Shown here: positions 28,131-59,609 of the stretch, piece after piece
Layout: every line of letters begins with the position of its first letter
How positions within the stretch are numbered: position 1 is the first letter of the stretch
Assembly: GCF_964355755.1 (NCBI RefSeq)
Contig: NC_092674.1
Span: 14,260,001-14,324,000 of the forward strand
Direction: 5' to 3'
Length of the DNA: 64,000 bases
Source: Antedon mediterranea
Taxonomy: Eukaryota; Animalia; Echinodermata
Notes under the pieces: model-generated
Seen by the model: only the letters and a program-made list of their open reading frames with translations
Told to the model about the DNA's origin: nothing
The model's database searches: none
Position numbers and translations under genes: made by a program

Positions 28131-29465
28131 CAATTAAATTCTTGGTAAGAATATTGTTCTTAAAGTATTATTTCTTGGTAAGAATAATTTTCTTGATAAG
28201 AATTTGTGTGATTCTTGTTAAGAATTTTACGATTCTTGGTAAGCCAAAAAGTATTGAAATACGGACAAGTCAAAATTTACTTGTTTCAAGAAATATTTTG
28301 CTTGAAACAAGTTTTTTTTTTCTTAAAACAAGAATCAGAATTTTGCTGTGTATAAGTATACGCTTACCGAAAGTAGGCCTAAGCAACCAAAGTAATACAC
28401 TAGCATCCCACTGATGTGTCCATTAACCACCATTGTTTTGTACTAACTGACTGACCTTGGCCACAGAACACAGTGAGCTAATTTGCATAATAATGCCACC
28501 TGTGAGCACTACTAACTAGCCAATCAGCAAAGAGTTACTCAAGTGGAACAATGAGCTAACTTGGCTTCATAGAGCCACACAATAAATAAAGTACAGTAAA
28601 TTAATAGTAAAACTTATTAATTTGGCCTTTACAGTAATAATACTTATTATCGTGCGATTTAAGATCACTAGTGATTTATTTACAATGTCAATTTCAGATG
28701 GGGTATTTCATATTGTATGTGATTTACATTTTGTGTTATAAAATGTCGAGTGTTTCACCTGCTTTGATAGAAACAATACTGTAATGAGTTGAAAATGTAA
28801 CCATATTAGTGTATAGGTAAACACATGATGTACTGCAAACCTAGTGCATTTGTGCACATAATAGTAGGTGACATTTGTAATTAAGATCGTTTTATTTGAC
28901 ACGAAAACATGTGAAGTCATAAAAAACGTACATTATCATATAATGTAGTACATTTTGAATGTTGACATGACACGATAAACAATAAACATGTTCCTTCGAA
29001 AATAGATTTTTCTCAGAATACTTGGATTTCGTTCTTAAATACGGTATATAGTTTTATTTATTGTAATGCCATGTGTTCTCTATATGTCGATATAGTAGGG
29101 TACGGACATTTATCTTAGTATTGCAGGGTAACACCGTGTCTTAAAAATATATTGTTTATTATAAACATAGACCTTTGCAAAAACACTACTTAGTTTATTA
29201 ATGAAAAAGATCTTAATTGAAATATACATTTGAATTAGCTGTACGCGAGTGCAAATAAAATCTCTAAATGAATATGTATTTGCAAAAAGCTCAAATTATG
29301 TTTTCGAGGATTGTTTTTTTTTTTAGACCACACTACTAAGTGGTTGGTGTAACTTCACATTTATGATATATTGAAATATATATGCTAATTAGTCACCTTA
29401 ATATGGACCTTTGCCATATACGATGATTTATTGATCAAATTCAGAGTTTTAGTATTATAGTATTA

Positions 29466-33136: not shown

Positions 33137-34291
33137 GGGCAATTCCATGCAAACATGGACATGACCAAAAAAATTCAAATTAATTAGTCAGCTCAAAATT
33201 TGTGTTTATGTTACTCTTTGAATATGTGGGAACTAGGTTTTTAACTTTTTCAATTCATTTATGACTTTTTGCAGCCAAAAAATTACGTTTATTCAATGTT
33301 GAATATATATTTTTTTTTAGGTGTGAAAAATAGGTAATTACGTTAACTGATTATTATTTTCCCAACAAAGCAATATTTATAAAGTAACATGTCTAAGTAA
33401 TAGTACACTTAAGATGTATGGAAAATATGATATAACTACAAATGTTGAATATCCCATATAGGAGTGCTGTGTATATTCTGTTATATATTAGGGTATGTAA
33501 TGCGAGTGACAAAAAAAATGATTTTTTTTTTTTATACCATCATGATGATAATTTTTTTTAATGAAATTTTATAATTTAGCTATACTACTTTGAACAATTA
33601 AAATTTGACAAATAAAAAATCCACGTAAATACAAAATTGTTGAGACATTGAAAAGTGAAATGCGAGTGACATGTAATGCGAGTGACGTTCAAAAATGGAC
33701 AATGTAATGCGAGTGACATTACCACAACTCTTTTTTTTGTAAAGTAAAATAGTAATTAATCTATCATTAGTTATGAATTAGTCCCAGAATTAGTATATAC
33801 ATTAATTTCATAATACAATGTGTAATTTGGCCCTTATTTGGAGGCACTACAGTATAATAATTATAGCATTAGGTTTGTTGAGGGCACAATCCCTAGCAAC
33901 GACCTTTTTGCAGTTAAATCATTTGAAAAATCAATCATTATAAGAGCTCATTAAATAAAAAACACTAAATCTGGTGAGATTTAACAAATTTGGTACAATT
34001 TTTTGTGAAGATAAGAAGGAAGGTAAGAATAAGTATACATTTATATTTAATCAAAATTTTTTTTCTTATATTGTTAGTGTTAATTATTTCAAATTCTATA
34101 ATTTGAAAACACCGCATAGGCCTAGGCTATAATAAGTAATTTATATATTATTATTTATATATTATTATTTACTAGGCATATTTTACATCACCAGGTCTAA
34201 AGCATTGTAGTTTTAAAAACAAAATATATAATTGCTTATTATTTAAAAATAATTTTAAAATATCATTCACATTTGCATCCTGCCTTTAGAA

Positions 34292-34570
34292 ATGGCCAAA
34301 CGACAGAGAAAGTACCTAGAAAAACTGAAAGCCGAGGGAAAATACACCTCATACAGAAACAAACAAAATAAAATTTCGAAAAGAAGTAAAAAAGTAAAAG
34401 AAAAGAGAAAATTCTAGCTCTGCCACCAGCTTTGAAGAAGCAGAAGATTGATGCTCTTAAAGTTGCTAATAGAAAACGTGTGGCTATTAGTTCAGAGCAA
34501 AGAAGGCTGCTTTGGCATCAGACGGACCATCACCTTTTAGAAGTGCTATGGCTTTGCTAAAGCCACTACC
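34292..34570 (+). pseudogene. Basic N-terminal remnant of the carrier element's transposase
   Basis: MAKRQRKYLEKLKAEGKYTSYRNKQ...NRKRV...SPFRS; frameshifted, no catalytic core; resemblance to Sola2 N-termini is from recollection only. Confidence 0.45.
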
Positions 34571-36212
34571 AGGGCAAAAAGAATGCTTGATGCTGGTTTG
34601 CGAAGAACTTTGAGTTCCATAATTTGTAAAATGGCTGTTTGAATTTTCTATTTTCATTTTTAGTGACCGTATAAGTGTTCTGTTACTGTGTTTGTAAAAA
34701 ATCAAGATATTCTGTTAGTGTTAAAAATAGATGATGTCCTCTAGAACTTCATCCAAATGAGTTGAAATAAAAGTTTTTACTTGAAAATTGATATAACATT
34801 CTTTGAGTGGTTTAATGTTGCATTATTTAATTATTGTCTACTTTTCTTTCTGCTTTGCTTAGTAAATACTAAGTTCACTTCTTACGGGAATGCGAGTGAC
34901 AGTAATGCGAGTGACGGGACTTTTTTGTTAAAATGTAAAATATTTTTAAAATCTATGTAATGTTGAATTTTTTTATTATCCTATTTTATACTTTAAAAGT
35001 ACAGTAATTAAAAATATAAGATCTTTTGATTTATATATTTTTAGTTTAAGGACACGTTCTTATCAAATCTAATCAAATTTTTGTTGTGTCCTTTTTGTGT
35101 AATGCGTGTGACAGAATTTCGCAATGGCGTCATTGTCGAAGTAAAAGACATACAATTTTTTTTATAGTATTTTATTAAAGACTTGCACCTAAAGTATGTT
35201 CATATAAAACATTGACTTAAAAATCCAATTAGTGTGTTCCTTCCCTTTACCAGCTAACCCGTCATATATAAAGCTCTAGCGGGTCGGCCAACCTCAATTT
35301 TCATTAGGCCTAAGTGACAACTCACCTTGGTATCAAAGTAAAGAGCCGCGATTTACGAGAGCCAGCTGTAATAAATCACAGCTTGTGGTCTGACAGTGCA
35401 AGATAAACAGATACAGTGTATATATAGCAAACGAAACAAAATAAATGTTTCCGTAAAGAAAAAAATAAAAGTATTCATACAGTTGTATTCATTATAAAAA
35501 AATATTGTTTTTACATGTTCGAATCGTGAAAATCGGTTAAGTTTAAGTGGAGCTAATGAACAAAGTTAAAATACACTTTCAATCATGTGAATGTTTACTA
35601 AAGGGCGTAGTGATAGTAATTCCTCGATGATGCACTAGGCCCGACATAAGACGCAATGCTGTTTTAGTATATCTATTTGTAACACTTTATCACGTTATTT
35701 TGCAGTAAATATGTTATATTATAATGTCAATATTATGATTATATTAATTATTGGTGAAAAACGATTTAATTTATTTTGATGTAATAAAATTACCGAACTA
35801 TTTTCTTGTGCGTAATTAGGTGACCGAGTCGCGCGGCTGCTAAGAAAAAAATACACTATTATTGTGGCCGCTGCACACGTGGTCGAGAGCATGTAGCTGG
35901 TTTACTTGATTGAATGGCGTATTAATTTTATATATAATAAAGATTTTTGATTATCTTAGAAGGAATAAAGTACAGCTTTTAAAAATAAATTATAATATTA
36001 TACGTATACCATAATTGTTAGTATGAATGAATGAGAAAAATATTTTTTATTGAGTAAAATTTAGGAACTTTTTTTCGCGTAATACAACGGTCGCATTACG
36101 TAATGTATGTTCGCCGCCCCTACCGTGGCAACTTTAATTAACTCAGCACTGTGCGAGGTCAGTTATTATTTTGTTGACGTTAGTACAATGTGTTGTTGGT
36201 AAGCTCCAAAAA

Positions 36213-39016
36213 ATGGCAGAAATTATGAGTGTTGGCAGCCGTGTACAATGTGTTGACAGTTTAGGACGATGGGAGTACGGGCGGGTGGTTGCTTTAGCCG
36301 ACGACGATGATGGACTAATTAAAGTTACATTTCCTGGCTGGTCGTCGGAGTGGGATCGTTCTGTCACTGTGCAAGAAATTCGACTGCCAGTGCAGCCGAT
36401 AGATAAACAATTTAAACGTAAGTGTATATTTATTAATTATTCTGAATTGTAGCATTAGATAGTCAATCCCCGGGCTACAGTTCATCATACTGTGCTAGGC
36501 CTAGGTGGATAAGTTTTTGACTTTAATCATTATTATAGAGAATGAAGTAGGTCTAGGCTAGGCCTATGTTAGTGTGACGATATGATTAAGACTTGAAAGA
36601 GTGAGTGCAGCGGCGCGTCGTAGGCCCACCACCGTGTCCGAGACTAGGCCTATTTATAGGACAATTCGGATAGACTGTTTTTTTTTAAATTAATATCTAG
36701 CTTTAAAGAAGGTAGCTTGGCCTACCCTACCTATATACATACACTATAATCATGCAGTACAGAAAAATCCCAGTACAAAAATTGAGGTAAATTAATCAAT
36801 ATCCTCGGGTGCCACACTAGTGACTAGCTTGATCCTAAAAATAGCCTGCCTATGAAGGGTAGGCTACTAGTAATTATGTCCTTTTTTTAAAAATGACTAC
36901 AGGAATTATGAAATATGTGAATAAGCTGTAGAAATAATTACGAGATTCTGCTGAAAGTGCATATCAGTCATTTATGGAAATTCATTATTAAGTTATACAC
37001 GGTATTAAATATATATGTTATACAGGTTCAGTTCCAGGTGGACATAGACGGTCTATTAAGAAACCTACACCTGAGCAATTAGCGACTTTTAAAAATCTGA
37101 CCTCAGAAGATGAGGTACTTGTAGGAGATGCATCTTTACAGGTCGTTGAGGTCGACAGGTTCAACCAATCTTTGGTTGTAATTAGGGACAACCACAGAGA
37201 AACAATTAATATCACTGAGTTACAGATAAAAGATAATGGAGGTATGTATTAAGTCCATTAACAATTGTGTATAATAATTAACAGCTGTTTCTTTTATTTT
37301 TTAATTAAAGAATCCTTTTTGTTTATTTTAATTAATCTTCTTACTTATCTATAATTTCTCATAAATCTGGTTGAATAGGCACTCTTTGAACTAATTACTC
37401 AATGCTAAAATTACAGGAAGTTGGTTTATATGTCTTAATTAATGTTAATAAACAATTATTTCTTTATGCTTACTCACATAATTTGGTTGGATAGGCACTC
37501 TTTTGATCTAATTACTTAATTCTGGTTCAATAATGATGATTAATGTTAAATATACAATTACTTTATGCTTTTGGTTGCATAGGCACTATTTTGTTTAGTA
37601 TCTTTAATCTAATATACAACTGTACAAACAATTCATTAATGTTAATTAAATTAGAAACACTTATATATTTTAAATTAGAAAAAGATATTAAATCATAGAA
37701 ATATTATAGTAAACTATAATGTCTCTATCATTAGATTGAGTTCTATCTATTGTATTATCTGAATAATGAATAATACTTTTTTTAGTGCAAGTTTTTTAAT
37801 TAAATCAAAGATAAAAATGCACTTTTATGATATCTGTATGATGGTGCTTTATTTTGTTTTCGATTTCAATAGGCAACCAAAATTCTAAAAGGGCAGCAAA
37901 AAAACGAAAGTCTTGCACTGTTTCTTGTGAACTTCAAACACATGCTGTACAGACAGACAGTTGGGTAAGTTTTTAAATTGTCATATAATTTAAATTATAG
38001 CTTTGTGATTGATTTACAGTACTTGTTTATTTTGTTCTAACATTAAGGCAGATAGTATTAGTAACATGGTTGTAACCAGCTCATTTGAATATACTAAAAT
38101 AAAACATCTTTTCTCTATTCCTTATTCTAGTTATCGACTGACAGCGACACCTTATTAGCTGTCACATCATGCATTGATGAGCTATATGGTATAGCAGTAG
38201 GAGAACTATATAAGGTAAAAATTGTTAGTGTTAGCATTTGTCTACTGTACTATGAAATTGTGTATTGTACTAAAGACTACATAATCAAACTTTATGTAAC
38301 AAAATGCCCATACAGTATGAATACGCTAATGTCATATTGTCAGTAATTTGGATTTATAATTTTTTGTTTTCTTTCAGATCAAGAAAAGCAACTTATTAGT
38401 TGCTGTAACAAACCTCGACTTATATAAACAATTAGCTCATTGTGTCATTTATATGGATGGTATTGATCTGGATTCTACTATCATCATTCCATACAATCGC
38501 TTAGATGTTTCTTGTGTGCCACTTTCCTGTGGATTGGACAAAAAAATGTTGGAGGAGTTCAGAAATAAGGCAAGTTCGCAAACTATAGAGAATCTCTCCA
38601 TATTAGAGTACAGAAAGCAGTTCCGAAGGGTGCAGTTGGCAAGTGCTATAAAATGTGAAGTAGGAGTGGTATTAAAGAGGAGACTGCGAGCTGTAAATCA
38701 CATGAACTTCGGACTTCTGACACCAGATGTTGATTGTGAAATGTTGCATTTCAACTTGCAAGAGGGTAAGAAAGCTAATAAATTCTCTTATAAAAATAAA
38801 AATCTTGATATGCTTGATCACATTTTGGGTAATGAATGGGACATCCATAGGTTTGAAAATGGAATCTCTTATGTAACAAGTTTGTCCATTCATATAAATA
38901 AGAAAAAGTACTTGGTAGGGTCGTTAGCAGTCGCTACATATAATGGACTTGTAGATGCAAATTATCGTCAACAACTAGGTGCTCACATGGTACATGTGAG
39001 GGATTGCTTGGACTAA
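36213..39016 (+). CDS. Five-exon gene, 411 aa, with N-terminal Tudor/chromo-barrel (Tudor-knot-like) domain; exons 36213-36417, 37026-37241, 37873-37964, 38131-38214, 38378-39016
   Basis: All introns GT-AG with compatible phases (1,1,0,0); 1236 nt open to the stop; VGSRVQCVDSLGRWEYGRV...IKVTFPGWSSEWDRSV fits the chromo-barrel pattern. Confidence 0.8.
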
Positions 39017-39591
39017 ATTGTCAATACTGTATGTAAAAACATTTTTAAAGATGCATTGTTTAAAAAAGCAAGACAACTGTGCTTTGTTGTTTTTCAAAAA
39101 TAATTTTGACTACTGTAGAGCATGCTTGCAATTCAAATTCCGTCCAATTTTCTTATTTGGCAATACATCTTTAATTGTTTCCGTATTGAAGAAAAGTCAT
39201 ATAAATAGTACTATTTAAGGATTTTACAAGTATTGTAGATTAATTGATTTGTCTTGTCTTACATGTTAAGTAATAAAAACAATTGTTGAGTTGCTTTTAT
39301 GAAAACTAAGGGGATAGTTTATCTAAAGGAAATTGGGGAAAATGTGATTTTTTTTGCTTGTTCAATCATGGAGGTATACTCCATGGTTCAATAAACACAT
39401 TAGAACATTACTAAAATCAGTCAACCCACAAGGGCAAATTTTTTAGTCACATTAACAGGTTTTAAATACTATTAAGTATTATTCAACTTCTTTTTTTGTA
39501 AGAGCAACACAATTATTGTTTTTTTTACATTGTACGCTGCCAACACTTATAATTTCTGCCTTTTGTTCTATGTAAATTGTATTGTACAAGT

Positions 39592-42500
39592 ATGAGTATC
39601 TCGGGACATTTTATTAATGGCCTATTGTGCAAGGTTCACCATCATGGTGCATCATGCAGTATAGATTGTTTATTGGAAGTTTTTTATTGGGGTATTTTTC
39701 CATTTACCAAAACTAAAATTTTCTCTCATCCCCTTCTCACAAGATTGTTTTATGTTTCAAATCTAAGAAAAATAATGCCTCTACAAACACCACCTTGTGA
39801 TATTCGGGAACCTGTTTGGAATTGGTTAGTTGAAAATTTACCAAATGGATTTTCCCCAAAAGGAACACATCATGCAGAAATACTGCAGGCCTTTGAATGT
39901 TTATCTGACACAAATATTGGCATGTCATTTGTTGCAAACTTCTTTGGAAATCAAAATCTACATTGCCAAAAGTGTCAGAGCTCATTAGATATTAACATTC
40001 TCACAAATTCAGTATATAATTACTCGCAATCGCTAAATGAAAAGTATCCACAAAACTTCAGTAAATGCATAGAGGAAGTCATAAGAAATACGATTTCACA
40101 TAAGTTAAAATGTAAATACAAGTGTAATTGTGGAGAAATGGCAAATACATTAAAAGGGCAATGTAGGATGCCTGAATTCCTTGTGGTAAACCTTGGGCTT
40201 GTGGGATGGCAAAATTGCCAAAAACCACCTATTGTTGTTCCCGAGAGAACAACCATACACTCATCCAGTTATGTTTTAACATCCGCTGTACAAATGGAAC
40301 CATCACACTTTATAGCAATTTGTAAAACTAATAGGGGTTATTCAGTCATTAATGATATGGTGCCATATACCAAGACATACCATACTTTTGCAGCAGCTGC
40401 TAACAGAAATCCCAAAATCCATTGCACATCAGTACCACTTGCAAGTTCAAAGGGCAAGGGAAAAATGGGGGGTATTCATTTGCTCATATACGCAAAAGTG
40501 GCGAGTGCTGAATGGCCGATGTTATCTTTCACTTGTCCAAAGCCAATAGAGGACCTAAATTCATCAGACCTTCCTACACAGGAATTGCCTACTGGTTCCA
40601 AGAATATGAGTACCAAAGAAAAGAATTCAGTAGATGACTTAAACAAAATGCCGATTGACTCTACTTGGCAAGTGCCACAGGAATTGCCTACTGGTTCCGA
40701 GAATATGAGTACCAAAGAAAAGAATTCAGTAGATGACCCTACTTGGCAATTGGCAAAAAAAAAAAAAAAACTTAATAAAAAGAAACATTCAGTAGATGAA
40801 TTAAACAAAATGCCGATTGACTCTACTTGGCAAGTGCCACAGGAATTGCCTACTGGTTCCGAGAATATGAGTACCAAAGAAAAGAATTCAGTAGATGACC
40901 CTACTTGGCAATTGGCAACAAAAAAAAGAAAACTTAATAAAAAGAAACATTCAGTAGATGAATTAACCAAAATGCCGATTGACTCTACTTGGCAAGTGCC
41001 ACAGGAATTGCCTACTGGTTCCGAGAATATGAGTACCAAAGAAAAGAATTCAGTAGATGACTTAAACAAAATGCCGATTGACTCTACTTGGCAAGTGCCA
41101 CAGGAATTGCCTACTGATTCCGAGAATGTAATTAGCAAAGAAAACCTATTATTAGATGGTTTGACTAAACCTGTACTTACTGATTTAACTAATTGTAACA
41201 ACAATGTTATTAAAAAAATAAATATCGGTGATGTTAACATTGAAGAAAAGGAAAATATTTCCCCTCATCCTAGGAAAAAACTCACTCAATGTAAAGTAAA
41301 AACAAACAATTTTGAACAATCTAAAAACTTTGTTGGAATTAAGATTGCAAAAAATAGTATTGTAGATATAGATATTGAAGCCATTGGTTCGACTGACATA
41401 CCACATACAATTTACAATGATAACATTTTCCTTAGCTGTCAGGAAATATTAAAATTATTAGGCCAGGAAAAAGAAATAAAAGCACGGGGATATGTCAAAT
41501 TCGACAAAATCCTTCAAGAAATGGGCCAAGACCCAAATCAAATGTTTCTTACATGTGGCAGCCGCAGACAGAGGCTCTGGGTAAAAAAAGAAGCTATAAT
41601 AAATATGTTAATGCACAAGTCATTTAGAAAACAAAAAACAGCTAATTTTGTTATGTTGCAATTGCAAGAGAAATTTAAAAATAAGAAATCTAAACTTGAG
41701 AAGACAAAATTTATTGAAAACAAGCCTCCACAAAAGACTCAAACTAGTTCATCCCCTACAATTAAGAAGGTAGATTTGAACTACAGAAAAGGAAATGTAA
41801 TTATTGATGGGCATCTTGTCAGTTACACAGTAAATGCAAATGGTGTGATTCACTTTAATACAAGTGAAATATTTTCAGCATTAGGTTTATTAAAACACAT
41901 TAAAAAGGAAGGGTACAAATATATTGATAAATATCTTAATGATCAAGGACTTGATTTTAAATCTTGCTTCATCATGAACGGTCCAAAGCGAACCTACATA
42001 ACGCTTCATGCGGTACACACTCTTATTTTATGTTTGCCAAACAGAATGATTGAAAGTGCAAAAAAGACAACTTTGTCCAATTCTGTTATTCTTGCACTGC
42101 AGCACATCACAGTAGAGAAATCTTCCGAAAACATACCATCTAAAAAAAAAGAGAAGTTCACGGTTGATGACAAAACAAATTTGTTAGAAAGTCTTAGTTC
42201 AATGTTAAGTGCAACAAAAGCAAATGACAATCAACGTTTAACAATAGATGATGTAGTGTCTGTATTGCATAAAGCAAGTATTAAATCACAAAAAGGAGCA
42301 AAAATTGTTAGAGGAATTGTAACCGATACATACAAATTATTAAACCCACTTAATGGTGAGGATGTAATTAATTGTCGCGAGAATTACAGTGGTTGTCGCC
42401 TTATGAACCGCATGAGAAAATTAATACCTGGGGTTCTTCCATCCAGAAAAACCGAAATGAAAGCTTCAGCCAAACTTAATGAAGAGTTTAGGGCAGTTTT

Positions 42501-44832
42501 GTGCCCACGCAGAACAGCATCTGGGTGGTATATTGACCCAGTCCGTTTGGTCGAAGTTTTGCTTTTTAAATATTCCTTTTTACAAGACAACATAAGTATG
42601 AAGATTCAAGGAGATGGTGCTCAAATGGGTGGGCGTAAAATTACTTATGTGGGGATTTCATTTCTCAATCACGAACTAAAGCTGCGTGGCCTCTCCTATC
42701 AAAATCCAAAAGAAATTTACCCAATTACACTTTTTTATGAAGGCGACGATCGTGATAACTTAGAAGAAAACCTAAAAATTCCCTTTTTGGAAAGATTAGT
42801 TCAGCATTTTAAATCAAATTTTACATTTTATTTAAGTGGGGATGAAATGTTCATCCAAGGTATACTGGATGGGTCATCTGTTTTAGGACCACTAACCGAG
42901 AAAGGTTGGAATATATACAATGAATGTAGCAAAGAGTCAAAAAAAAATGTATCAGAAAGTGGTATGCGAACAGACTTGTCCATGCCTATTGATCGTATCC
43001 ATCCAATTTCATTAATGCCTTCAATTCCACTTACCCATACACTTCCATGCATTCTTCACTGGGTTTCAAGGTGCACTGAAAAACTTTTATCATTGGAAGT
43101 TGAGAAAATATTTTCGCTTGGAAATAAATTAGCCGAAGTTGATGGCTCTTCAAATATTGAAGACCTAATAAAAAATTTAGAGACAAACATTAATTTACGA
43201 GGCATAAAAAACGGTAATTTCAGAATACCATTAGACAAAAATGGAAAACCAGAGCAGATTTCATTAAACAAAGATGCTGCAATCACGATAATTTGCCCAA
43301 CTCCCCTAGGAAAAGAAAAAGAATATCCACATGTTTTACATAATGTTGTCCCAACTTCAAAAATTAATAACAATCTACCTAAAAATGTAAGAGATTTTCT
43401 ACAACTAGACACTGATCTAACTGAACTTAGTTGTGTAAAGATGATATGGGAGAGTTTGTATATCATGTTTAGCATAGTACAGAAAGAACCAGAACACAAA
43501 ATTAAGTCAAGTTGTGTTGCAGGTTCTTTAAGACCGTCTGATTACAATTGGGGTTATTCCAATGATCAAAAAAATCAATATAAATTTCACGCAGAGAGGC
43601 TGTACCAACTGGTTTGCCTCAGATACAATTGGCACAACTTAACCCCATACATGATAAAATTTATTGATTATGGGGAACATTTTTTATCAAGGGACATTCC
43701 CTTATGTAGGTTTTCCACAGAAGGTGGTGAGCACAGCCACTATGATCGAAACTGCTTTTATTTCCACCACACAACTAGACATGGTGGGAAAAATAGTGTT
43801 GACCCAAACCTGGCCCAATTTAGTACTGTGTGGCGCAGGCTATCATATGACATCATTCATGGAGAAGATGAATCAGCTAAAAAAGCATTTGAGGTATATG
43901 TCAAAATGCATGTTGCTGCATCAAAAATACAGCGATGTTTTCGATTATTCTTGGTGAATAATTCTTTGTCTAAGTCTGGGTACATTCAAAACCCACAGAA
44001 TGAACATGAAAAAGCTAAAAACTTAATTTGTTTATCTAAGTTAGTACCACAAAATGTTATAGATTCAACAACTAAGAAATTATTCCGTGGGAAATCGTTT
44101 ATTTTAACTGGAAGTGTCCCAAAGTTCCAGGGGAAAAAAATGACTCAACAAACAATAACTGAAATGATAAAAGCAAATGGTGGTAAAATTAAAAAAAGCT
44201 TACCAGGAAATTCAAAAAGATCCACGAAAAAATACATAATCTTAACAAATCTTGCAACTTGCAAAAAAAGTACCTTTAAAGTGCCAAATGTCATAAAAGA
44301 TGGCGTGAGACGGCGCAGTCATGTTGTTGACTACAGTTATATATTTTCATCTATAGAATCCAACAGTCTACCTCCTTTTAGTATGCATGAACCAGAATGC
44401 CTTATGCAAATAAAGCAAAAAGTTTCGTTGTTGCCAACACTTAATCAGATACACTTTAAAAAAAAATTTCGAATGATATCTATCCTAAAAGGTCCGCGAA
44501 AAACTAAGGCAGTTATCCGAGAGCCAACACTTAAATGTGCAAAAAATGTTGCAGTTTTTTATGCCAATATAAAAAGAAAAGAATACATCAAAAGCAATGT
44601 TGGTGTAACTTTTAAAGAAAGTAGTCAATTATTTTCAAAGTATACCAAAGAATACAATGCTTTAAAACACAATGAAAAAACACATTATACAAGAATGTGG
44701 CTAAATAGCCGATATTCTAAGGCTAACCAGGCTAAAAGGTTAGCTGACCTGAAATCTTACAATTATATAAAAAAACCACAATATTTAGAAGCTACAAAAT
44801 GTAGTCTTGCTCAATCAGTTGCTCAGAATTAA
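39592..44832 (+). CDS. ~1750-aa multidomain RAG1/Transib-like DDE transposase/recombinase (USP-like protease, repeats, 2x Bro-N-like, DDE core, IQ, BRCT, HMG box)
   Basis: Uninterrupted 5.2-kb ORF (first ATG 39592); motifs IQGDG, LSGDEMF, PCILHWVSR, LTPY, FSTEGGEHS; SCSIDCLL/SHFIA/INDM; FRGKSFILTG..NGG; AATAAA at ~44907. Confidence 0.75.
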   Translation: MSISGHFINGLLCKVHHHGASCSIDCLLEVFYWGIFPFTKTKIFSHPLLTRLFYVSNLRKIMPLQTPPCDIREPVWNWLVENLPNGFSPKGTHHAEILQAFECLSDTNIGMSFVANFFGNQNLHCQKCQSSLDINILTNSVYNYSQSLNEKYPQNFSKCIEEVIRNTISHKLKCKYKCNCGEMANTLKGQCRMPEFLVVNLGLVGWQNCQKPPIVVPERTTIHSSSYVLTSAVQMEPSHFIAICKTNRGYSVINDMVPYTKTYHTFAAAANRNPKIHCTSVPLASSKGKGKMGGIHLLIYAKVASAEWPMLSFTCPKPIEDLNSSDLPTQELPTGSKNMSTKEKNSVDDLNKMPIDSTWQVPQELPTGSENMSTKEKNSVDDPTWQLAKKKKKLNKKKHSVDELNKMPIDSTWQVPQELPTGSENMSTKEKNSVDDPTWQLATKKRKLNKKKHSVDELTKMPIDSTWQVPQELPTGSENMSTKEKNSVDDLNKMPIDSTWQVPQELPTDSENVISKENLLLDGLTKPVLTDLTNCNNNVIKKINIGDVNIEEKENISPHPRKKLTQCKVKTNNFEQSKNFVGIKIAKNSIVDIDIEAIGSTDIPHTIYNDNIFLSCQEILKLLGQEKEIKARGYVKFDKILQEMGQDPNQMFLTCGSRRQRLWVKKEAIINMLMHKSFRKQKTANFVMLQLQEKFKNKKSKLEKTKFIENKPPQKTQTSSSPTIKKVDLNYRKGNVIIDGHLVSYTVNANGVIHFNTSEIFSALGLLKHIKKEGYKYIDKYLNDQGLDFKSCFIMNGPKRTYITLHAVHTLILCLPNRMIESAKKTTLSNSVILALQHITVEKSSENIPSKKKEKFTVDDKTNLLESLSSMLSATKANDNQRLTIDDVVSVLHKASIKSQKGAKIVRGIVTDTYKLLNPLNGEDVINCRENYSGCRLMNRMRKLIPGVLPSRKTEMKASAKLNEEFRAVLCPRRTASGWYIDPVRLVEVLLFKYSFLQDNISMKIQGDGAQMGGRKITYVGISFLNHELKLRGLSYQNPKEIYPITLFYEGDDRDNLEENLKIPFLERLVQHFKSNFTFYLSGDEMFIQGILDGSSVLGPLTEKGWNIYNECSKESKKNVSESGMRTDLSMPIDRIHPISLMPSIPLTHTLPCILHWVSRCTEKLLSLEVEKIFSLGNKLAEVDGSSNIEDLIKNLETNINLRGIKNGNFRIPLDKNGKPEQISLNKDAAITIICPTPLGKEKEYPHVLHNVVPTSKINNNLPKNVRDFLQLDTDLTELSCVKMIWESLYIMFSIVQKEPEHKIKSSCVAGSLRPSDYNWGYSNDQKNQYKFHAERLYQLVCLRYNWHNLTPYMIKFIDYGEHFLSRDIPLCRFSTEGGEHSHYDRNCFYFHHTTRHGGKNSVDPNLAQFSTVWRRLSYDIIHGEDESAKKAFEVYVKMHVAASKIQRCFRLFLVNNSLSKSGYIQNPQNEHEKAKNLICLSKLVPQNVIDSTTKKLFRGKSFILTGSVPKFQGKKMTQQTITEMIKANGGKIKKSLPGNSKRSTKKYIILTNLATCKKSTFKVPNVIKDGVRRRSHVVDYSYIFSSIESNSLPPFSMHEPECLMQIKQKVSLLPTLNQIHFKKKFRMISILKGPRKTKAVIREPTLKCAKNVAVFYANIKRKEYIKSNVGVTFKESSQLFSKYTKEYNALKHNEKTHYTRMWLNSRYSKANQAKRLADLKSYNYIKKPQYLEATKCSLAQSVAQN
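40570..41130 (+). repeat. In-frame coding tandem repeat (units 99, 162, 162, 99 bp)
   Basis: CCTACTG(G/A)TTCC anchor at 40588, 40687, 40849, 41011, 41110; QELPTGSENMSTKEKNSVDD. Confidence 0.92.
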
Positions 44833-45503
44833 ATTATGAATACAGTGCTAAAGCTTGTATTTGTGTTGTGTATCCTTTAATACAGTAGACTGGTACAGGT
44901 AATTTCAATAAAACATTTTTCTTGTCATTTTCTCAAATCACTAAGTCCATTCACTAAACAATTCATACTGTATGTTTCAAGTAAATATTGCCTATGCTAG
45001 TGCAAATCGATTAATAATGTACAGTACAGTAGGTATCATTTTTGGCAGAATAATAATGTGTGGAAGATGTTAGATCACTTTACAATATTTATGGCAATAT
45101 AAATCATTTATGATAATAAAAATCATTTATGGTAATAAATAAACATGTTTTTATAGTTTATGGCGTTTTAATATTATTTTTCTATTTTAACATAAGTAAC
45201 TAAAATTTAACAAAAAGTGGTTTTGAATTATACAAAACAACTTCTTTTTTTCAAAACTGTTTATCAAACTAAGATTATATTTGTCATATAGGTATTATAT
45301 AATACTGTAGTATAAAGGCCAATTTACAAAGATGAACGGTAACGGTTATAAAAATATAGAATGTATGTTATACCTTATGACCATTTACACACCATGCAAA
45401 GTGGACAGAGGTTTCCTTTCAGGATGTGTACAGATTCTATGTGATTTTCTGCTTATCATTACTCATCTCTGTAAATTGGCTTTAATTGTAAAGTATATTA
45501 GTA

Positions 45504-46460
45504 TTTCCATTTACTTTTATGTGTAAAATTAATTCAATAAATCCTATTCTTGTAATAGTATAGAGAATTTACAAATGAATTGGCTTTAATTGTAAAGTAG
45601 TATCTATATAATAATTGTAGTAGTAGTAATCTATATATAAGCGTGCCATCTAGTAAGTACAATTGTTGTAGTATGTGATAGTGATCGTAGGTAATAATAA
45701 TAGGTAGTAGTATAGTACAGTGGTACAATTTTTAAATTATGTTCTTTTAAAAATTATTTTACATTCCAATAACAATATTCACAGCTTTACAATGCAATTT
45801 AAAGTATTTATATATAACTCGGGAAAGTTTCCATTTACTTTTATGTGTAAAATTAATTCAATAAATCCTATTCTTGTAATAGTATAGAGAATTTACAAAT
45901 GAATTGGCTTTAATTGAATTGTAGTAGTAATAATAAGTACAATTGTTGTAGTATGTGATAGTGATCGTAGGTAATAATAATAGGTAGTAGTATAGTACAG
46001 TGGTACAATTTTTACATTATGTTCTTTTAAAAATTATTTTACATTCCAATAACAATATTCACAGCTTTACAATGCAATTTAAAGTATTTATATATAACCC
46101 GGGAAAGTTTCCATTTACTTTTATGTGTAAAATTAATTCAATAAATCCTATTCTTGTAATAGTATAGAGAATTTACAAATGAATTGGCTTTAATTGAATT
46201 GTAGTAGTAATAATAAGTACAATTGTTGTAGTATGTGATAGTGATCGTAGGTAATAATAATAGGTAGTAGTATAGTACAGTGGTACAATTTTTACATTAT
46301 GTTCTTTTAAAAATTATTTTATATTCCAATAACAATATTCACAGCTTTACAATGCAATTTAAAGTATATTTATATATAGCCAGGAAAAGTTTCCATTTAG
46401 TTTTTATATGTAAAATTAATTCAATAAATCCTATTCTTGTAATAGTATAGAGAATTTACA
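45504..46460. repeat. Tandem repeat, ~280-325-bp unit, ~3.3 copies
   Basis: TTTCCATTTACTTTTATGTGTAAAATTAATTCAATAAATCC at ~45504, ~45828, ~46108, ~46390. Confidence 0.9.
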
Positions 46461-46504
46461 GTTTGTCTTAAGCACTATTATTTTTAGTTTGTGAAAATAG
46501 ACAG

Positions 46505-46795
46505 TTTCAATTGGGTAGCACACTGTTTCAAAATGGATAGCACAATGTTTCAATTGGGTAGCACACTGTTTCAAAATGGATAGCACAATGTTTCAATTGG
46601 GTAGCACACTGTTTCAAAATGGATAGCACACTGTTTCAAAATGGATAGCACAATGTTTCAATTGGGTAGCACACTGTTTCAAAATGGATAGCACAATGTT
46701 TCAATTGGGTAGCACACTGTTTCAAAATGGATAGCACAATGTTTCAATTGGATAGCACACTGTTTCAAAATAGATAGCACAATGTTTTAATTGGA
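46505..46795. repeat. Minisatellite of alternating 22/21-bp units
   Basis: GCACACTGTTTCAAAATGGATA and GCACAATGTTTCAATTGGGTA, about 13 units. Confidence 0.92.
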
Positions 46796-47396
46796 AGTTA
46801 AAAAACCTATAAATGACAATAAAATATTCACTATTTTATTCACTTTTTCAAGACAATATTTTACCTCCGCCAAGGAGGTATATGTAGCCACATAAGTTAT
46901 TTACTTTGACCAAAAATTGGATTAAAAAAAATAATTTATAGCAAAAAAAAAATCAAATTGGTCGAAAGTCAATGGTTTTTTATAGAATTTACATTTTTAT
47001 TAAAGAGAAAACATTTTTTTAACTGCAAAATTGCTTATTTAAAAAATAAATAAAATATTAATTGCTCATGTTTTTGGGTGACAATACTGTACATCTTTAT
47101 AATTAAGCACATAATAATACTATTACAGTAGAAAAAAAAACACCAGAGAATTTAGAATGTAGTTCCAGTTTACTTGGCAGAGAGCACTAGCTGACCTTGC
47201 TTGAGCAATAAAACTTCCTAATCTAAACAAGCTATAATGGTAATCCAATTAAAATGCAATTACCAGTCCTAGACCTTAATCCCTAAAATGATGGTCAGAA
47301 ATCAGCAAAATTGGTAAAGGGAAGGAACACCTCATGCAAATCCTAGACTAACAAAAATGACTGTAATGTGTAATGCGAGTGACCATGGAATTGCCC

Positions 47397-48062: not shown

Positions 48063-49399
48063 TTACTATTTCCTACTGGAAGGAATATCAACACTTTGTC
48101 CCCTTCTACAAATTCTCTATCAATAGCATTCTTGTTATAATTGTGGGACATAATTTCTTGTTGTTCAAGTTTGTTTACATTAGCATCGTTCATTAATTCC
48201 TCCATTTTTTCTCTTATTTCTAACATGTATTTGATAACATCAGTAGATGTTTCTTCATCTTCTACCCAATTACTTTTGAGTAAACTCAAGGGTCCTCTCA
48301 CCTCTCTACCATAAAGCAATTTAAAAGGTGAATGGCCCGTCGCTTTACTAGGAACTTCTCTGTATGCAAACAGAAAGGGGGGTATGTAGTTATCCCAATT
48401 TTTTCTTTGCTTAACTGTAAGTGTCCTTATCATATTTTTCAATGTACCGTGAAATCTTTCAACAAGCCCATTGCTTTGGGGGTGGTACACTGTAGTCTTT
48501 AATTGATTAATCCCCAACATACTACATATAGATTGCATAATTGAAGACATGAAATTAGTTCCTTGATCATGTACAATCTCTTCGGGTAATCCTACTCTAG
48601 TAAAGACTTCTATTAGAGCCCTGGCTACTGTTTCAGCTCTAACATTGGGTAACGGGATAGCATCCGGATATCTCGTAGCATAGTCAATTATAGTAAGCAT
48701 ATATTTGTTATTACGGCTTGTTCTAGATAAGGGTCCAACAATATCTATCGCTATACGTTTAAATGGTGTACTTATAATCGGTAATGGTATCAAAGTATGT
48801 TTCCTTTTACTTTTACCCTTATCTACCTTTTGGCATTCCTTACAGACTTTACAATAGACTACCACATCTTTAAATATACCTGGCCAATAGAATTGGTTCA
48901 GGACCCTACTTTTAGTTTTCTCAACACCCATGTGACCTGCAAATGGCACATTATGACCTAAGTGTAATACACCCTGTCTACACTGAGTGGGTAATACAAT
49001 CTGTTCCACTTGGTTATTCTTATCTTTAATACTACTCCAATTTCTCATCAATATACCTTGTCTCATAAAGAAACATACCCTATGCTGACCTATTTCTTCT
49101 ATAGGGACTATCCTGTCAAACACTCCTTTGAGTGAGTCATCCTTAGTTTGCAATTTGATCAGTTCTTGTTTAGTTAGCTTGTGCTGTTGTTCATAAGTTT
49201 TATGTTTGACTGTTTTATCTTTAGCTTTATCCTCATTTTCGTCAAACAAATTATTCATTTCTGTTCCATTCATATCATCTAAACACTTAGTTTTATTTAC
49301 TTTGTTGTCATTTACTACTGTTTTCAACAATTGTACATTAGTTTCTTTAGGCGGCTCTTCTATCAGCTTAAAGTTACTATCTTTCCCTAACAATATCAT
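48063..49399 (-). pseudogene. Gypsy integrase (C-terminus deleted in this copy)
   Basis: H-x6-H...CxxC, DIVGPL, HDQGTNF, NGLVERFH; diverges from the second copy after VGNSK. Confidence 0.95.
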
Positions 49400-49960
49400 T
49401 TCGTCTTGTATTCTAACATCATTTCTATTCTGGCTTGCTCCCTAGTTAGGACGAACATTTCTTTAGCCATTGTTTCCCCACAATTCTGGTCCAAATCATG
49501 ACCCAATAACATGTCCCTCTGTAATCCTTCGATTACGGCTACAATCACTTTTCCTGTCACTATCTTACTTTCTATAGCTACCTCAGCTAAGGGGACGGTA
49601 ATATCGCCTCCTATACCTCTTAACGTAACCCATTTTCCTGGCAAGTAACATTTGTTAGGCACTAGACTTTCCTTAACAGCTGACTGGGTACATCCCGAGT
49701 CTCTAAGCATAGTTATATCCTGTCCTTCTAATTTTCCTGGTATTGTACATTTCTCCATTTTATTTTCTACACTATCTATAACTACTTGGGGTCTATCTGA
49801 TTTTAGTCCTTCACATCTTAAGCCATCTTTCACATTCGGGCCCTTCTTAGTGTCACTAGTCTTTCCTTTTGCTACCATCTTAGGACAATCCCCTATTTTA
49901 TGTCCCTTCTCCTTACAATTAAAGCATAAGCCATTAATCCATTCATTAGAAGGTTCTTTC
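49396..49960 (-). pseudogene. Gypsy zinc knuckle and aspartic protease
   Basis: CFNCKEKGHKIGDC upstream in frame; LRDSGC and MLLGHD protease motifs. Confidence 0.9.
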
Positions 49961-51026
49961 TGTTGGAAATTTCTACCATAGTTATGGAATTTGCCTCCCC
50001 TTCCGTGATACCTACAGTATTGTATCCTTGCTGCCTAGCTCCAGGGTTATTCTGAGTCGTACTATTCTTAGGTTTACTATTTTCTTGGCCCTTATAATAC
50101 ATAGGCTTATTTTCAGAATTTACGGCATTCCAATAGCCACGGCCACCTCTATTAGCTATATAATCATCGGCTATCATAGCCATATCATAGCTCTTATTTA
50201 CTTGTTTATCTCTAAGATAAAGCCTCAGATCTTCAGGCATTTTATCAAGTGCCTGTTCCATTATAATCATTTCAATAATGCCTGCAGCATCATCTTCTTT
50301 TACATTAGCACATTTCATCCAACATTTTAAATAATGGGAGAGCTCATTCAGCCATTCCCTGATGGACATATCTTTAACTCTGTTTGAATTTCTAAATTTA
50401 AATCTGTAGGTCTCTGCGGACACATCATACTTTTCTAAGATTGCCTTCTTTAAGGTATCATAATCTACACATTCTTTTACGGTTAAGGATGCATATGCTG
50501 TCCTAGCTTTACCAGACAGTTCAGGTGCTAACCTAGCGGACCACGTATTCTTATCCCAACCTGTGGCTTCTGCCAAGTGTTCAAATGTTCTAAAATATAT
50601 ATCAATATCATCTGATTCCTTCAAAGTAGGAACCTTTACCTTCATTTCATCTACTATATTCCTAGCATTACTGTAGCTAGACCTATTTTCTAATTCCATC
50701 ATTTTCACTCTTTCTTGTGATTCAATTTTTCTTTGCTCTATATCTATTTTCTGTGGCTCTATATCTGCTTCTAATCTTAATTGGTCTTGTTGGTATTGTA
50801 ATTCTAACCTTTTGTTTTCGGCCTCGGCCTCGAACTTCATTCGAAAATATTCGAGCATCATATCTTTAGGCATACCGCCGGGTATTTCGGGCAAATCAAT
50901 ATCCCTAGCCATGTTATCATACATTTCATTGACTTGGTCAACCTCTTCTTGGTCAACCATCTCTTCCCTAGTATCTTTTTCTGACATAGTCTTATCTATA
51001 TTTTTACCCGATCTTAAAGTTGTCAT
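49893..51026 (-). CDS. gag: Gypsy gag with SCAN-like capsid region (frameshifted before the zinc knuckle)
   Basis: MTTLRSG start; YFRTFE..W..W, LKKAILEKY..ETYRFKFR, IIMEQAL..MPEDLRLYL. Confidence 0.9.
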   Translation of the reverse strand: MTTLRSGKNIDKTMSEKDTREEMVDQEEVDQVNEMYDNMARDIDLPEIPGGMPKDMMLEYFRMKFEAEAENKRLELQYQQDQLRLEADIEPQKIDIEQRKIESQERVKMMELENRSSYSNARNIVDEMKVKVPTLKESDDIDIYFRTFEHLAEATGWDKNTWSARLAPELSGKARTAYASLTVKECVDYDTLKKAILEKYDVSAETYRFKFRNSNRVKDMSIREWLNELSHYLKCWMKCANVKEDDAAGIIEMIIMEQALDKMPEDLRLYLRDKQVNKSYDMAMIADDYIANRGGRGYWNAVNSENKPMYYKGQENSKPKNSTTQNNPGARQQGYNTVGITEGEANSITMVEISNRKNLLMNGLMAYALIVRRRDIK

Positions 51027-51558
51027 GCTAATAACAATTTTACTAATGAAATATGTAAACTTATGTATACAAAATATGTTATAAAAGTATTTGTATTACC
51101 TTGATTCCATTCAGATATGTAAAAAATATGAAATCCACATAAATTTTTAAATGCAATACAATCTAAGACATTAATTTACTTCAAAGTCACAAACAACGTT
51201 CCAAGTTCGCTCCGTACAAAAATTTGCTTTCGAAATAAAAAATAGTTTACAAAGTCAGCTTTGCAAATCTTCTCAAAATTTTCTGGGCTTCCTTCTGTTA
51301 CTTCAGTCTTCTTCTTTCAGATCTCGGTGAATATATACAGTATCTCCGATGAATATCCAGCAGTCTTGAGTAGGTACCTTGAGCTCAACAGTACTTCTTC
51401 TTCGTTGTAATATCCAAACAACGCACGGTATAAAAACTGTCAGGAATCCAGATCTTCGTAACCATTTAACTTTTTGGTTACTGATTTAACAGGCCCGTAG
51501 AGTAGGCACTGTCACTTCTTCTTCTTCTTGATACTTAAATCATGTATACAAAAATTTT

Positions 51559-51572
51559 CACCGCTGCCACCA
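51559..51572 (-). promoter_or_regulatory. Primer-binding site complementary to the tRNA-Leu 3' end
   Basis: TGGTGGCAGCGGTG immediately after the 5' LTR; mirrored at 57916-57929. Confidence 0.85.
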
Positions 51573-51973
51573 TGTAGTGAATTTATCTTAGTTGGTTCCG
51601 AGCTTTCTCAGGCGTATATATTTCCACGCGACGTACACAGCTGTCACTGAATGATAACTCATACAAAAAGTATATTTAACTCAACTAGAACTTTTATTCC
51701 TTGTAATTCGATTAATACATCTTTCTACCACTACCAGTCAAGCCTTAATATTCTCTTTATCATCTTTCCGTTTATCTACTTTGATCTTATTCTCTCTTTT
51801 CTTAATATCTATTACATTCTACTTTTATACTGGATATGCAAATTTTAGGCTTCAGAGGAGGATAACATTTTCCCTCCAAAAATTATACAATTTTGATTGG
51901 CTAATAATAAGGCGGACCTGGTCTAAAGCATCCTTCTCTAAACACAGAGAATCACAACATCAATAATATGACA
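51573..51973 (-). repeat. Gypsy 5' LTR
   Basis: TG...CA, 401 bp, primer-binding site on the inner side, TSD CTCAT on the outer side. Confidence 0.95.
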
Positions 51974-54900
51974 CTCATTCTAAAACAGATTTCCTTATCA
52001 TAATAAAATAATATATGAATTTAAATGTAATATTGTATACATAATATTAGTAATTGCCATTGCATTTATTATAATTATATATTATACGGTTACCCCTTAA
52101 TTATACTATAGTATAATTTTCTTGTTATATTTTACAATATTTTCTTCATAGTTCAACAATTTTTTCTTTCACAGGAGAAATTATCATACTGAATCATCAC
52201 ACACCAAGTCTCATAAATCTCTACTGTATTTCTCCAAGGTACTCCAGCTACATGGTATTGCCTTGAGGCTAAACTACAGTAAACGATATACTGGCACTAC
52301 CATCATTCCTGGCCCGTCAACCTGGACCACATTACAGTATGGTCCAACACATAAGTACAGTAGTCGTACTACTGATTCAAAATAGTGAATTACACCCTGT
52401 GGTCAAGGCTTTATTTGCTCTTATGCTTATTTCCTCCAAATATAGAGTACGTAGGGCTTTCGATTTGCTTTTATACCAGTTAATTTAAAAATCGTTTATG
52501 CCTATTGTTGCATAAAGTATCAAATTTAGACTGTAAATACTGGGATGATCACCCTAAATTTTCTTTTTCAATTAACAATTTTATATTTCACAGCTGAAAA
52601 ATGCACTAAAGCATCATATAGAGATTTTTTATTCATAACTGTTAAATTGCATCCCAATACATGGTACCTATATAAAAATACAAAGGCGGCCAACACAGAT
52701 AGTTTGATATATACAGTACTCTCTTATAAATAGATGTATATCTCCAAACTACTCCAACTACCTAATTAGCATACTACTGTACACTTTGTAGACAAGAAAT
52801 AAATTGTATCCACCTAGAGGACTTATGGTAGTACAGTCGATCGTCCTGTCACTGGCCCGGTCAACATAATCTACGCCTAGATTATTACAGTAAGTACATT
52901 ATTACAGAGATTTTTTTTTTTTTTGCAGAAATCAAAGTTATGTGTATAGAAAGCAGTACTCGTATTAAAAACTAAGCAGGTTATATTCTTGTACGCAAAC
53001 TGGCAGGATATTTTGAATATTTTTTGTTGTTGAAATGATGGAATCCTAACTTCATTTTCCACGAGCTGGAGAGTGACAAAGACATATTACGACCCTTTTA
53101 TTTAAATTTATTTGGATAGACCTCTATGTAAATTCATTAAAGGCTATATTATTGTTTTATATTTTAATATGTGATAGTAGATAATCATTGTGCATAATGA
53201 AGACTATGAATCTAATATTTACTTGCATTCTCATCTTTTTAAAATTGTATTTATAATGCTGGTAATGAGTTTACTATTGAAAAAGTCATGTTTCCACTTA
53301 TCTCAAATTGTGGCACACCTCTAACCTTGGTAGAACTGACTGTGTTCTACATGAGTACATTTATTCTGCCATATAGTAGTGTTTCCACCATACTTCAACC
53401 TGGTAATTGAATAAATTTCATCGGGGTAAAATTTAAACTAATTATCACCTTTTAACATAAAGTATCCTCCTGAAAAATGTTTGTACTGTACTTCATCTAA
53501 TATCCATTACTTAATACTAATTTGGGTGATTTATGTCTAACTTCAGGAATGATCTGAGGCTAGAAGAACGAATTTCTGTACATATAATTTATATAAAAAA
53601 TAAACCAATGTTTTCCTAATAACTTAACCCCTAGGTTGATAACTAACAAAGAAATTATTGAAATTGTGTTCTTACAATATATGTGTACTGTATCTACATA
53701 TGCATACTGCGTTCAAAAGAAGAATGTTTTATAGTTATTATAGGTAACTGGTTATTTCCAAATATTAAAGGTCTGATATCTAACATAAACTAAATGTTAT
53801 CAAACTATGTTTTTGAAAATCTTTATGATATAATAATTATAATAATATGAACATAATATTAAATTATATTGACTATTTTTGATAATCATCATGTCCTTAT
53901 AAATTCATTTATATTTATTTTGTGGTAATATAGTTTATATATTATGTATTAAATAAATTGGTAAGGCCCTATACTGTTTATATTTAAGGAAAGTTTATAC
54001 ACACTTTTATTTTATGCCTACCAATATTAGTATTAATTGTTTATGTAACTATTTTGTCTAATTGCATTGAATTTTTGTATAGGCCAATGGCATTAATGTT
54101 TTTCTCAAAGCAAATTAGCCTAATAATGCCATATTTAGACACACAATTCATTGATTTCTGATATTCTGTACTTGTGTATGCATTACTAAAATAGTAGTTA
54201 TTTTATTACTTTTATAATGTATAAACATTTATTCATTTTTTTTTTACATTTTTTAATTTAAAAATTATTAAAATACCTATCTACCTTTCTGTTATTGTTA
54301 CTATTATAATATTTTTTGAGGCAGATTGATTTCAATAAAAAAGAATTTAAAAAATTAATTTGACTTATACTGTACTATGTTAGTTCAGGAGATGAAGTGT
54401 GTGTGGGCAGAATCTGGTGTGTTGGAGGTTGGTGATGTGAGGTGTAAAGTTGTCACTTTAAGACCTAAATTAGATGTTTTCTGAAGAAAAGAAGTAAGAG
54501 GATAGGCTTTCAAACAACTTCAAGAAGATTCACACAGAAATATTTACTTCCCAATAAATAGTATTTATACCAAGTATCAAATGTTTTTGAATACGAAAAA
54601 TATTTTTTATCGATGTTTTTTGTATATGTTTTTAAGCAAAATTCTATCATAACCCTAATTTTTAATGTTCAATGTGATATTTATTGAAGTGCTTTGAATA
54701 CGTTGATGAAATTTGGAGGTATGAAACTTTGTTAGGAGTAGAATCAGCTTCAAGCATTAAATGTTAAAAATATGTTTATATTACTCATTAATTAATAATA
54801 ATTATTAATAAATTAATAGAAAACTAGAGAGGGCGCTTTTCGACAAGAAAATGAATGTTTTTTTATGTGTGTTATTTTTCCGCTCGAGTTTATTCAATGT

Positions 54901-59595: not shown

Positions 59596-59609
59596 GGGAT
59601 TGTCCTAAG

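Follow-up and report, generated by a model that had tools for sequence, protein, structure and literature searches.

A likely transposase with a predicted RAG1-fold core and HMG-box tail, encoded with a Tudor-domain partner between inverted ends in the echinoderm Antedon mediterranea

Introduction

The RAG-type enzymes of the papers cited here take HMGB1/2 from the host and have a kelch-type RAG2 as their partner. According to excerpts of these papers, HMGB1/2 assist RAG and enter the complex through the DNA (PMC3597659), RAG and HMGB1 bend the 23 recombination signal sequence (RSS) into a U, heptamer and nonamer being read together (PMC3575807), ProtoRAG assays contain HMGB1 (PMC8289069), sea urchin RAG1L binds the RSS when HMG proteins are present (PMC8355894), and the C-terminal tail of RAG1L is an end clamp (PMC10629977). 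The excerpt of PMC10629977 contains no occurrence of HMG, BRCT or Tudor. PMC9435367 covers 786 RAG1L homologues. Here we describe a 64,000-nt stretch of Antedon mediterranea (assembly GCF_964355755.1, contig NC_092674.1, positions 14,260,001 to 14,324,000, forward strand), hereafter the window, which is AT-rich eukaryotic DNA full of repeats. It holds an element of 12,110 bp with two genes between inverted ends, and one of these genes encodes a likely transposase that is predicted to combine a RAG1-fold catalytic core with an HMG-box-like tail.

Results

The transposase ends in a domain with the predicted fold of an HMG box

The original prediction had proposed an HMG box fused to a RAG1-like enzyme and quoted a peptide for it. 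This peptide occurs letter for letter in the open reading frame (ORF) 39577-44832 (+); it is real and covers aa 1653-1704, corresponding to nt 44533-44688, the positions first assigned to it (44545..44700) having been shifted 12 nt rightward. Residues are numbered throughout along P0001, the protein of 1751 aa that starts at nt 39577. From N- to C-terminus, the transposase comprises a USP/SUMO-protease-like domain, a repeat linker, a middle domain, the RAG1-fold core, an IQ-like motif, a BRCT domain and the HMG domain (Table 1).

The AlphaFold2 model of aa 1620-1751, with a mean predicted local distance difference test (pLDDT) of 90, contains three helices (aa 1658-1673, 1679-1695 and 1698-1729) with the spacing of an HMG box. 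Using this model in a structural comparison with VIA, rows 1-25 of 50 were HMG boxes with Z 7.7-5.8 (two of the 25 were assigned from their entry titles), and the first non-HMG structure followed at Z 5.4; the L-shaped three-helix HMG fold expected for the tail is therefore predicted. At the sequence level, a family profile of 39 sequences gave 32 matches at E<=1 against the PDB sequences, comprising 21 HMG boxes, 8 BRCT domains and 3 others, with NHP6A as the best HMG match (E 0.0013), and a profile of 21 sequences reached HMGB1 box A at E 1.8e-4. A single-sequence search of the PDB gave no useful match. In Pfam the segment alone has no HMG match at E<=1, and the exon adjoining the transposase of one relative (L006) lies above the HMG_box_2 cut-off. 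A weak Pfam match of the tail to Phi-29 GP4 (E 0.0017-0.003) was discarded, as the profile and structural searches lead to a different assignment.

The alignment of 39 sequences retains the motifs N-x-A-x-[FY]-Y, S-F where helix 2 opens, and E-W-x-x-L, followed by a further Y and W; the helix-2 Phe, the Trp and the helix-3 Tyr of the HMG core are kept. Position 1693 is Trp, Phe or Tyr in all 39 sequences. The helix-2 Phe (Phe1679), kept in 29 of the 39, aligns with Phe48 of NHP6A, and Val1660 aligns with Met29. In NHP6A, an architectural HMG box, Met29 and Phe48 are the DNA-intercalating residues. The tail is basic, with 29 Lys and Arg against 7 Asp and Glu in aa 1620-1751, and in distant relatives the HMG motifs are more canonical than in P0001. 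Conservation of the segment among homologues, on which the original prediction depended, is borne out by this alignment and by the comparison of two loci (L001 and L002), where over 74 codons the proportion of nonsynonymous differences (pN) is 0.16 and that of synonymous differences (pS) 0.76. The HMG box is present family-wide, and these proportions indicate purifying selection on it. Taken together, we are confident that the tail has an HMG fold.

The catalytic core is predicted to have the fold of RAG1

The model of the core (aa 890-1478; pLDDT 95, predicted template modelling score 0.90) retrieved RAG1 with Foldseek (E 4.7e-10, TM 0.51), followed by HzTransib (E 3.9e-7) and the P element (E 2.3e-5). 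VIA aligned RAG1 at Z 19.0 over 405 residues with a root-mean-square deviation of 3.6 A, BbRAG1L at 17.9, HzTransib at 12.3, the P element at 11.1 and Hermes at 7.5. Atlas returned cnidarian clusters without a name (0.95), then RAG1-domain clusters (0.91-0.95) and then DUF1280. The model predicts an RNase H DDE core with the insertion-domain architecture of RAG1. The three acidic residues are conserved in the alignment (Asp1013 in 47/49 sequences, Asp1089 in 57/57 and Glu1385 in 49/49), as is a C/DxxH motif between the second Asp and the Glu (C or D in 57/57, H in 56/57). Several named lineages, EnSpm, Chapaev, Mirage and Kolobok among them, were not represented in the structural matches of the core; to our knowledge these lineages have no solved structure, and therefore the statement that the core is closest to RAG1 is valid among solved structures only.

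The designation RAG1-like holds for the fold, and barely for the sequence. A Pfam RAG1 match was found in 1 of 19 queries (E 0.0024, below the cut-off) and in none of 46 relatives at E<=0.1, and the core profile had no RAG1 or Transib among its 53 matches at E<=1 to PDB sequences. No CxxC or Hx3-4H occurs between Asp1089 and Glu1385 in P0001, and the ZnC2/ZnH2 ligands form no conserved columns across 74 sequences; a rearranged zinc site built on partly conserved His residues might exist. The GRPR/K nonamer-binding motif and the CCGHC tail are both missing from P0001, and among 91 family proteins they occur in one and in none, respectively.

Both genes lie between inverted ends

A perfect inverted match of 19 nt brackets both genes, and none of 500 shuffles gave a match as long. 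In all, 17 loci with relatives were drawn from metagenome contigs. Locus L012 has inverted ends of 41 bp starting CATTACAG, its copy L013 is 99.8% identical with a different right flank, and the left end of L016 is related. The ends of four elements, including the right end of the window element (CATGAG), align on CAT(T/G)A; they are of the 5'-CA..TG-3' type, the left end in the window being degenerate. None of these four has heptamer-like ends beginning with CAC, and the aligned ends have no asymmetry of the 12/23 type. A second conserved block, CATTG(A), which we take to resemble a SOX site, lies about 13-19 nt inside the ends; the window ends have CTTTAC there. The base before the left end is A in two elements, and the base after the right end is C in three. 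The flanks of L012 at 784-790 and 10070-10076 are near-inverted copies of each other and not direct repeats.

Locus L003 is a unit of 13,083 bp with a self-overlap of 69 bp. Between its two genes, at 6369-6409, a 20-bp perfect palindrome corresponds to the right end joined to the left end, one base short. Either an excision circle or the collapse of a tandem array during assembly could account for this locus. At 11928-11967, directly upstream of the transposase gene, L003 also carries a 40-bp inverted copy of the stretch in which its partner gene starts (6997-7036), and in L012 a GC-rich hairpin is found upstream of the partner gene at 9242-9284. Inverted ends, multiple copies and different flanks, as in cut-and-paste transposons, were all found in this family. 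With two genes placed between inverted ends, the unit is probably a mobile element of marine invertebrates.

The window element is nested, lying inside an outer element with terminal inverted repeats (TIRs) that itself interrupts a Gypsy pol gene. The ends of the outer element start with GGGC. Inside it are a 15-bp motif that recurs and the remains of a short ORF near 34292, and its flanks carry a nearly matching 4-bp repeat.

Table 1. Features of the nested elements in the window (positions count from the first letter of the window).
Feature	Position	Strand	Basis or remark
Outer TIR element, ~2.1 kb (33137-35226 + 47337-47396)	33137..47396	.	13-bp ends 33137-33149 and 47384-47396
Left terminal inverted repeat	35227..35252	+	nt 1-7 degenerate; perfect over 19 nt, 35234-35252
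Partner gene, ~411 aa, five predicted exons	36213..39016	+	open GT-AG splice path
Partner exons	36213-36417, 37026-37241, 37873-37964, 38131-38214, 38378-39016	+	
Transposase ORF	39592..44832	+	single exon, uninterrupted; 1746 aa counted from first ATG (39592); open frame from 39577
USP/USPL1-like cysteine protease domain	39592..40506	+	Cys27, His244, Asp260, zinc-finger cysteines; profile and conservation
Variable linker, in-frame 162/99-bp repeats	40577..41199	+	relatives have unrelated repeat linkers
Conserved middle domain, apparently duplicated, no identified family	41344..42126	+	alignment
RAG1-fold DDE core	42244..43866	+	model, Foldseek, VIA, conservation
Core residues	Asp1013 (42613), Asp1089 (42841), Cys/His 1158/1161 (C/DxxH), Glu1385 (43729)		
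IQ-like motif on long helix	43909..43971	+	many relatives have Pfam IQ matches, part of them above cut-off
BRCT domain (aa 1501-1601)	44077..44379	+	Pfam BRCT_2 E 8e-9, above cut-off
HMG-box-like domain, basic arm before it (aa 1653-1729)	44533..44763	+	profile, model, structural matches, conservation
280-bp and 43-bp tandem arrays in the 3' region of the element	45654..46795	.	
Right terminal inverted repeat	47312..47336	-	starts CATGAG read inward; perfect match part 47312-47330

The partner gene encodes a Tudor-domain protein

The partner, whose splice path is one of 24 similar solutions, has an N-terminal Tudor domain (PHF20L1 Tudor, E 2.9e-4 with the partner profile) and, towards the C-terminus, a conserved domain that could be placed in no known family and had no match among solved structures. 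Homologues of the partner adjoin the transposase in 4 of the 17 loci (L003, L006, L012 and L013), most other loci being too short. The two genes lie on the same strand in L003 and L006 and are convergent in L012 and L013, which represent one element, and in a gene model of Holothuria leucospilota (P0042) they are fused. Of 41 partner relatives matched, one was named, from the coral Desmophyllum pertusum. The partner shows no similarity to the transposase profile, and no kelch-repeat RAG2L gene is linked to the transposase; no further open frame within the ends exceeds 71 aa. A complex prediction for the core and the last exon of the partner scored 0.00; it was run without alignments and with an uncertain partner fold, and counts neither way.

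Other domains of the transposase

The N-terminal 310 aa match USPL1 in a family-profile search at E 3.5e-4 and have no Pfam match above the cut-off. Across 21 sequences the Cys of the putative Cys-His-Asp triad is near-invariant and the His invariant, and 2 of 21 relatives are without this domain. In P0035 from Glandiceps talaboti, a ubiquitin domain (E 7.5e-9) is fused before the protease (UCH_1, E 0.0035). The middle domain had no Pfam or PHROG match, and its assignment as BRO/KilA-N was a guess that found no support in these searches. This domain, apparently repeated twice and placed before the core, is a candidate DNA-binding module. The BRCT domain is the sole Pfam domain found in P0001, the Pfam IQ motif not being detected in this protein itself.

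The family occurs in marine invertebrates

The C-terminal 862 aa had 385 matches at E<=0.001 among cluster representatives; those named among the best 150 were eight locus tags of Holothuria leucospilota and one protein of Glandiceps talaboti. Relatives are known from a sea cucumber (8 separate loci), a hemichordate and a coral, and several clusters have 3-13 members on different large contigs. In public annotation, members appear only as BRCT domain-containing or hypothetical proteins. The GT-AG introns present in L016 and L012 are missing from L005 and L015, which suggests that the family is transcribed and spliced; L005 and L015 both carry stops or frameshifts. A viral origin was rejected, since the best BFVD match was a hAT-like protein (E 5.6e-4, TM 0.25) and no PHROG match below E 0.004 was found in 10 proteins; among viral contigs, none of 41 pattern matches was confirmed as a relative.

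Other features of the window

Outside the nested elements, a very long inverted Gypsy duplication spans 48063-61425 with outer arms of 4361 nt that are 100% complementary around a centre near 54740, and reflects either a genuine fold-back or an error of assembly. Long terminal repeat retrotransposon ORFs at 14118-20073 (-) are presumably of BEL/Pao type, judging from their motifs. Repeats of 282-287 bp are common to 7131-7693, 20088-20369 and 28347-28633, and the regions 20531-21940 and 26604-28129 contain related tandem arrays of 92/102 bp and 63/64 bp, one of them with an inverted block.

Discussion

On balance we favour the view that the window encodes an HMG-tailed transposase with a predicted RAG1/Transib fold, likely of the cut-and-paste type, which is encoded with its Tudor partner between inverted ends and whose box would bind and bend the element's own ends, making host HMGB dispensable. 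By analogy with RAG, the box may be the transposase's own DNA-bending cofactor in cis, replacing HMGB1/2, as the original prediction had proposed; the helix-2 Phe aligned with the intercalating Phe48 of NHP6A speaks for such a role. If RAG and Transib are a guide, a transposase dimer would pair the CAT...ATG ends, which would be cut off blunt, leaving hairpins on the flanks, before insertion elsewhere; the excised ends could join into a circle, and the fused box would supply the HMG function locally on the end DNA. More speculatively, the BRCT domain might engage DNA ends or repair proteins, the protease might strip SUMO or ubiquitin, and the Tudor partner might read methylated histones and steer the complex, as the PHD of RAG2 does.

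Several observations weigh against this view. As for the fold of the tail, all HMG matches in VIA have Z below 8, which the tool grades as middling or common, Foldseek ranks HMG boxes first with none at E<=0.001 (best HMGB3, E 0.2), and the Atlas score of 0.80 for HMG clusters is a lead only. P0001 has no match above the curated Pfam HMG_box or HMG_box_2 cut-offs; at E<=0.1 Pfam HMG matches were found in 4 of 46 relatives, none above cut-off and some of the 46 being tail-less, while another 20 queries gave 3, of which one passed the cut-off. Among the 41 relatives whose tail is long enough, 36 matched the family HMG profile and five did not, a count that is partly circular as the profile was built from most of the same relatives. 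Moreover, the conserved helix-1 Tyr of NHP6A (Tyr28) aligns with an Ala in the tail. As for its role, HMGB1 bends the RSS in a nonamer and 12/23 setting, and P0001 has no nonamer-binding motif and its ends no asymmetry of the 12/23 type; a single box may not replace the two-box HMGB1. The core lacks the zinc motifs by which RAG1 is stabilised, and therefore the chemistry may differ. As for mobility, the left end in the window is degenerate, so that this copy may be immobile, a target site duplication, 5 bp long in RAG1L and Transib, is absent from L012, whose flanks may be misassembled, and a 6-bp repeat flanks the window element provided that its right end is extended by one base (chance 0.0065). 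Locus L003 may be no more than a collapsed tandem array.

The strongest competing explanation, to which we give an appreciable though minor chance, is that the HMG box recognises the ends sequence-specifically, in the manner of SOX/LEF boxes, and takes the place of RAG1L's nonamer-binding domain and CCGHC tail, not that of HMGB1. The family is without the RAG1L clamp and without the nonamer-binding motif, and therefore the box may be an end reader; it occupies the C-terminal place that the excerpt of PMC10629977 assigns to the RAG1L end clamp. The conserved inner block with its presumed likeness to a SOX site points in the same direction, as do SOX/LEF boxes lying within 1 Z of HMGB1 in the structural comparison. 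However, the sequence profiles place HMGB1 and NHP6A above LEF1 and SOX30, the window's own ends carry a different inner block, and a helix-2 Phe is typical of non-specific boxes. End bending and end reading by the box are not mutually exclusive.

It is improbable that the box serves target capture or chromatin tethering, on pre-bent or nucleosomal DNA and together with the Tudor partner, instead of acting on the donor ends. Such a role would suit both the methyl-lysine-reader-like Tudor domain and the target DNA bent by 120-170 degrees that RAG and Transib need according to an excerpt of PMC12337333, but flanks are known for three insertions only. We regard it as still more improbable that the gene has been domesticated by the host for recombination or repair and is no longer mobile. 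Purifying selection, the introns and spliced versions in relatives, the host-type nature of BRCT and HMG domains and the degenerate left end in the window would all agree with domestication; the gene is nested in two other elements, however, it lies between inverted ends, there are many copies per genome, L012 and L013 already indicate copies of one element at unrelated sites, and the spliced versions are those with stops or frameshifts. A reading of the tail as an unspecific basic helical stretch whose likeness to HMG is compositional is hardly credible, the missing Pfam match of P0001, the Z values and the Atlas score notwithstanding, as profile, Foldseek and VIA searches all rank HMG boxes first and in bulk and distant relatives have the more canonical motifs.

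Returning to the transposase whose box would act on its own ends, we consider the element a RAG1-fold transposon variant outside RAG1L/Transib proper, possibly a new superfamily. The most far-reaching form of this reading, which we put forward tentatively and would not ourselves expect to hold in full, is a branch at superfamily level in which a self-sufficient, zinc-free RAG1 core carries its own HMG bender, BRCT domain and SUMO/ubiquitin protease, a Tudor protein unrelated to RAG2 takes the role of RAG2, and excision circles resemble V(D)J signal joints, that is, an independent RAG-like two-protein recombinase.

With a natural RAG1-fold enzyme that has a fused HMG box, the role of HMGB becomes directly testable by deletion and rescue. 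The family tree of RAG is widened by a lineage whose predicted structure matches RAG1 better than it matches Transib and that is nearly invisible to sequence search, that lacks a zinc site thought essential, and that has acquired another kind of chromatin-reader partner. Copies that are intact would be candidate new transposases for biochemistry.

Comparison with known systems

In the literature searched we found no description of this architecture; the search lay outside Repbase, Dfam, subscription journals and supplements, and those of PMC9435367 and PMC12730594 may list members. RAG1 and the RAGL elements (ProtoRAG) share with the window element the closest solved fold, the D-D-E and the C/DxxH His, two genes within inverted ends (convergent in L012 and L013), a second gene with a chromatin-reader-like domain, and an occurrence in cnidarians and deuterostome invertebrates. 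Unlike them, the element shows 9-12% identity and is without ZnC2/ZnH2, GRPR/K, CCGHC, a RING/zinc-finger N-terminus and a kelch RAG2L; it has CAT instead of CAC ends, the additional protease, IQ, BRCT and HMG domains, and a partner of varying position. Transib, represented by HzTransib, has the same fold and CA...TG ends, but consists of a single small gene; its zinc motifs and CAC ends are absent here, and its structural score is lower than that of RAG1. The CMCT clade, according to the excerpt of PMC12730594, is similar in its CA..TG ends (PlavakaB CATCA..TGATG) and RAG1-related fold, and is set apart by the motifs C(2)C and H(3-4)H, described as common to all its members and absent here. 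The C/DxxH group (P, hAT, MuDR, Kolobok and Dada, as listed in an excerpt of PMC10045372) has the motif in common with the element, whereas the P element and Hermes score far below RAG1; the motif is not diagnostic because RAG1 has the same His, H795 (excerpt of PMC7204232).

As for the tail, HMGB1 box A and NHP6A are the best profile and structure matches and share the helix-2 Phe, the Trp and Tyr core and the basic N-terminal arm, whereas here a single box stands in cis, with 8-21% identity and the helix-1 Tyr replaced. Transposases with fused SUMO/ubiquitin proteases and DNA-binding domains are known from Zisupton and Ginger, which have different cores and proteases of the Ulp1/OTU type, compared with the USP/USPL1-like protease of the element described here.

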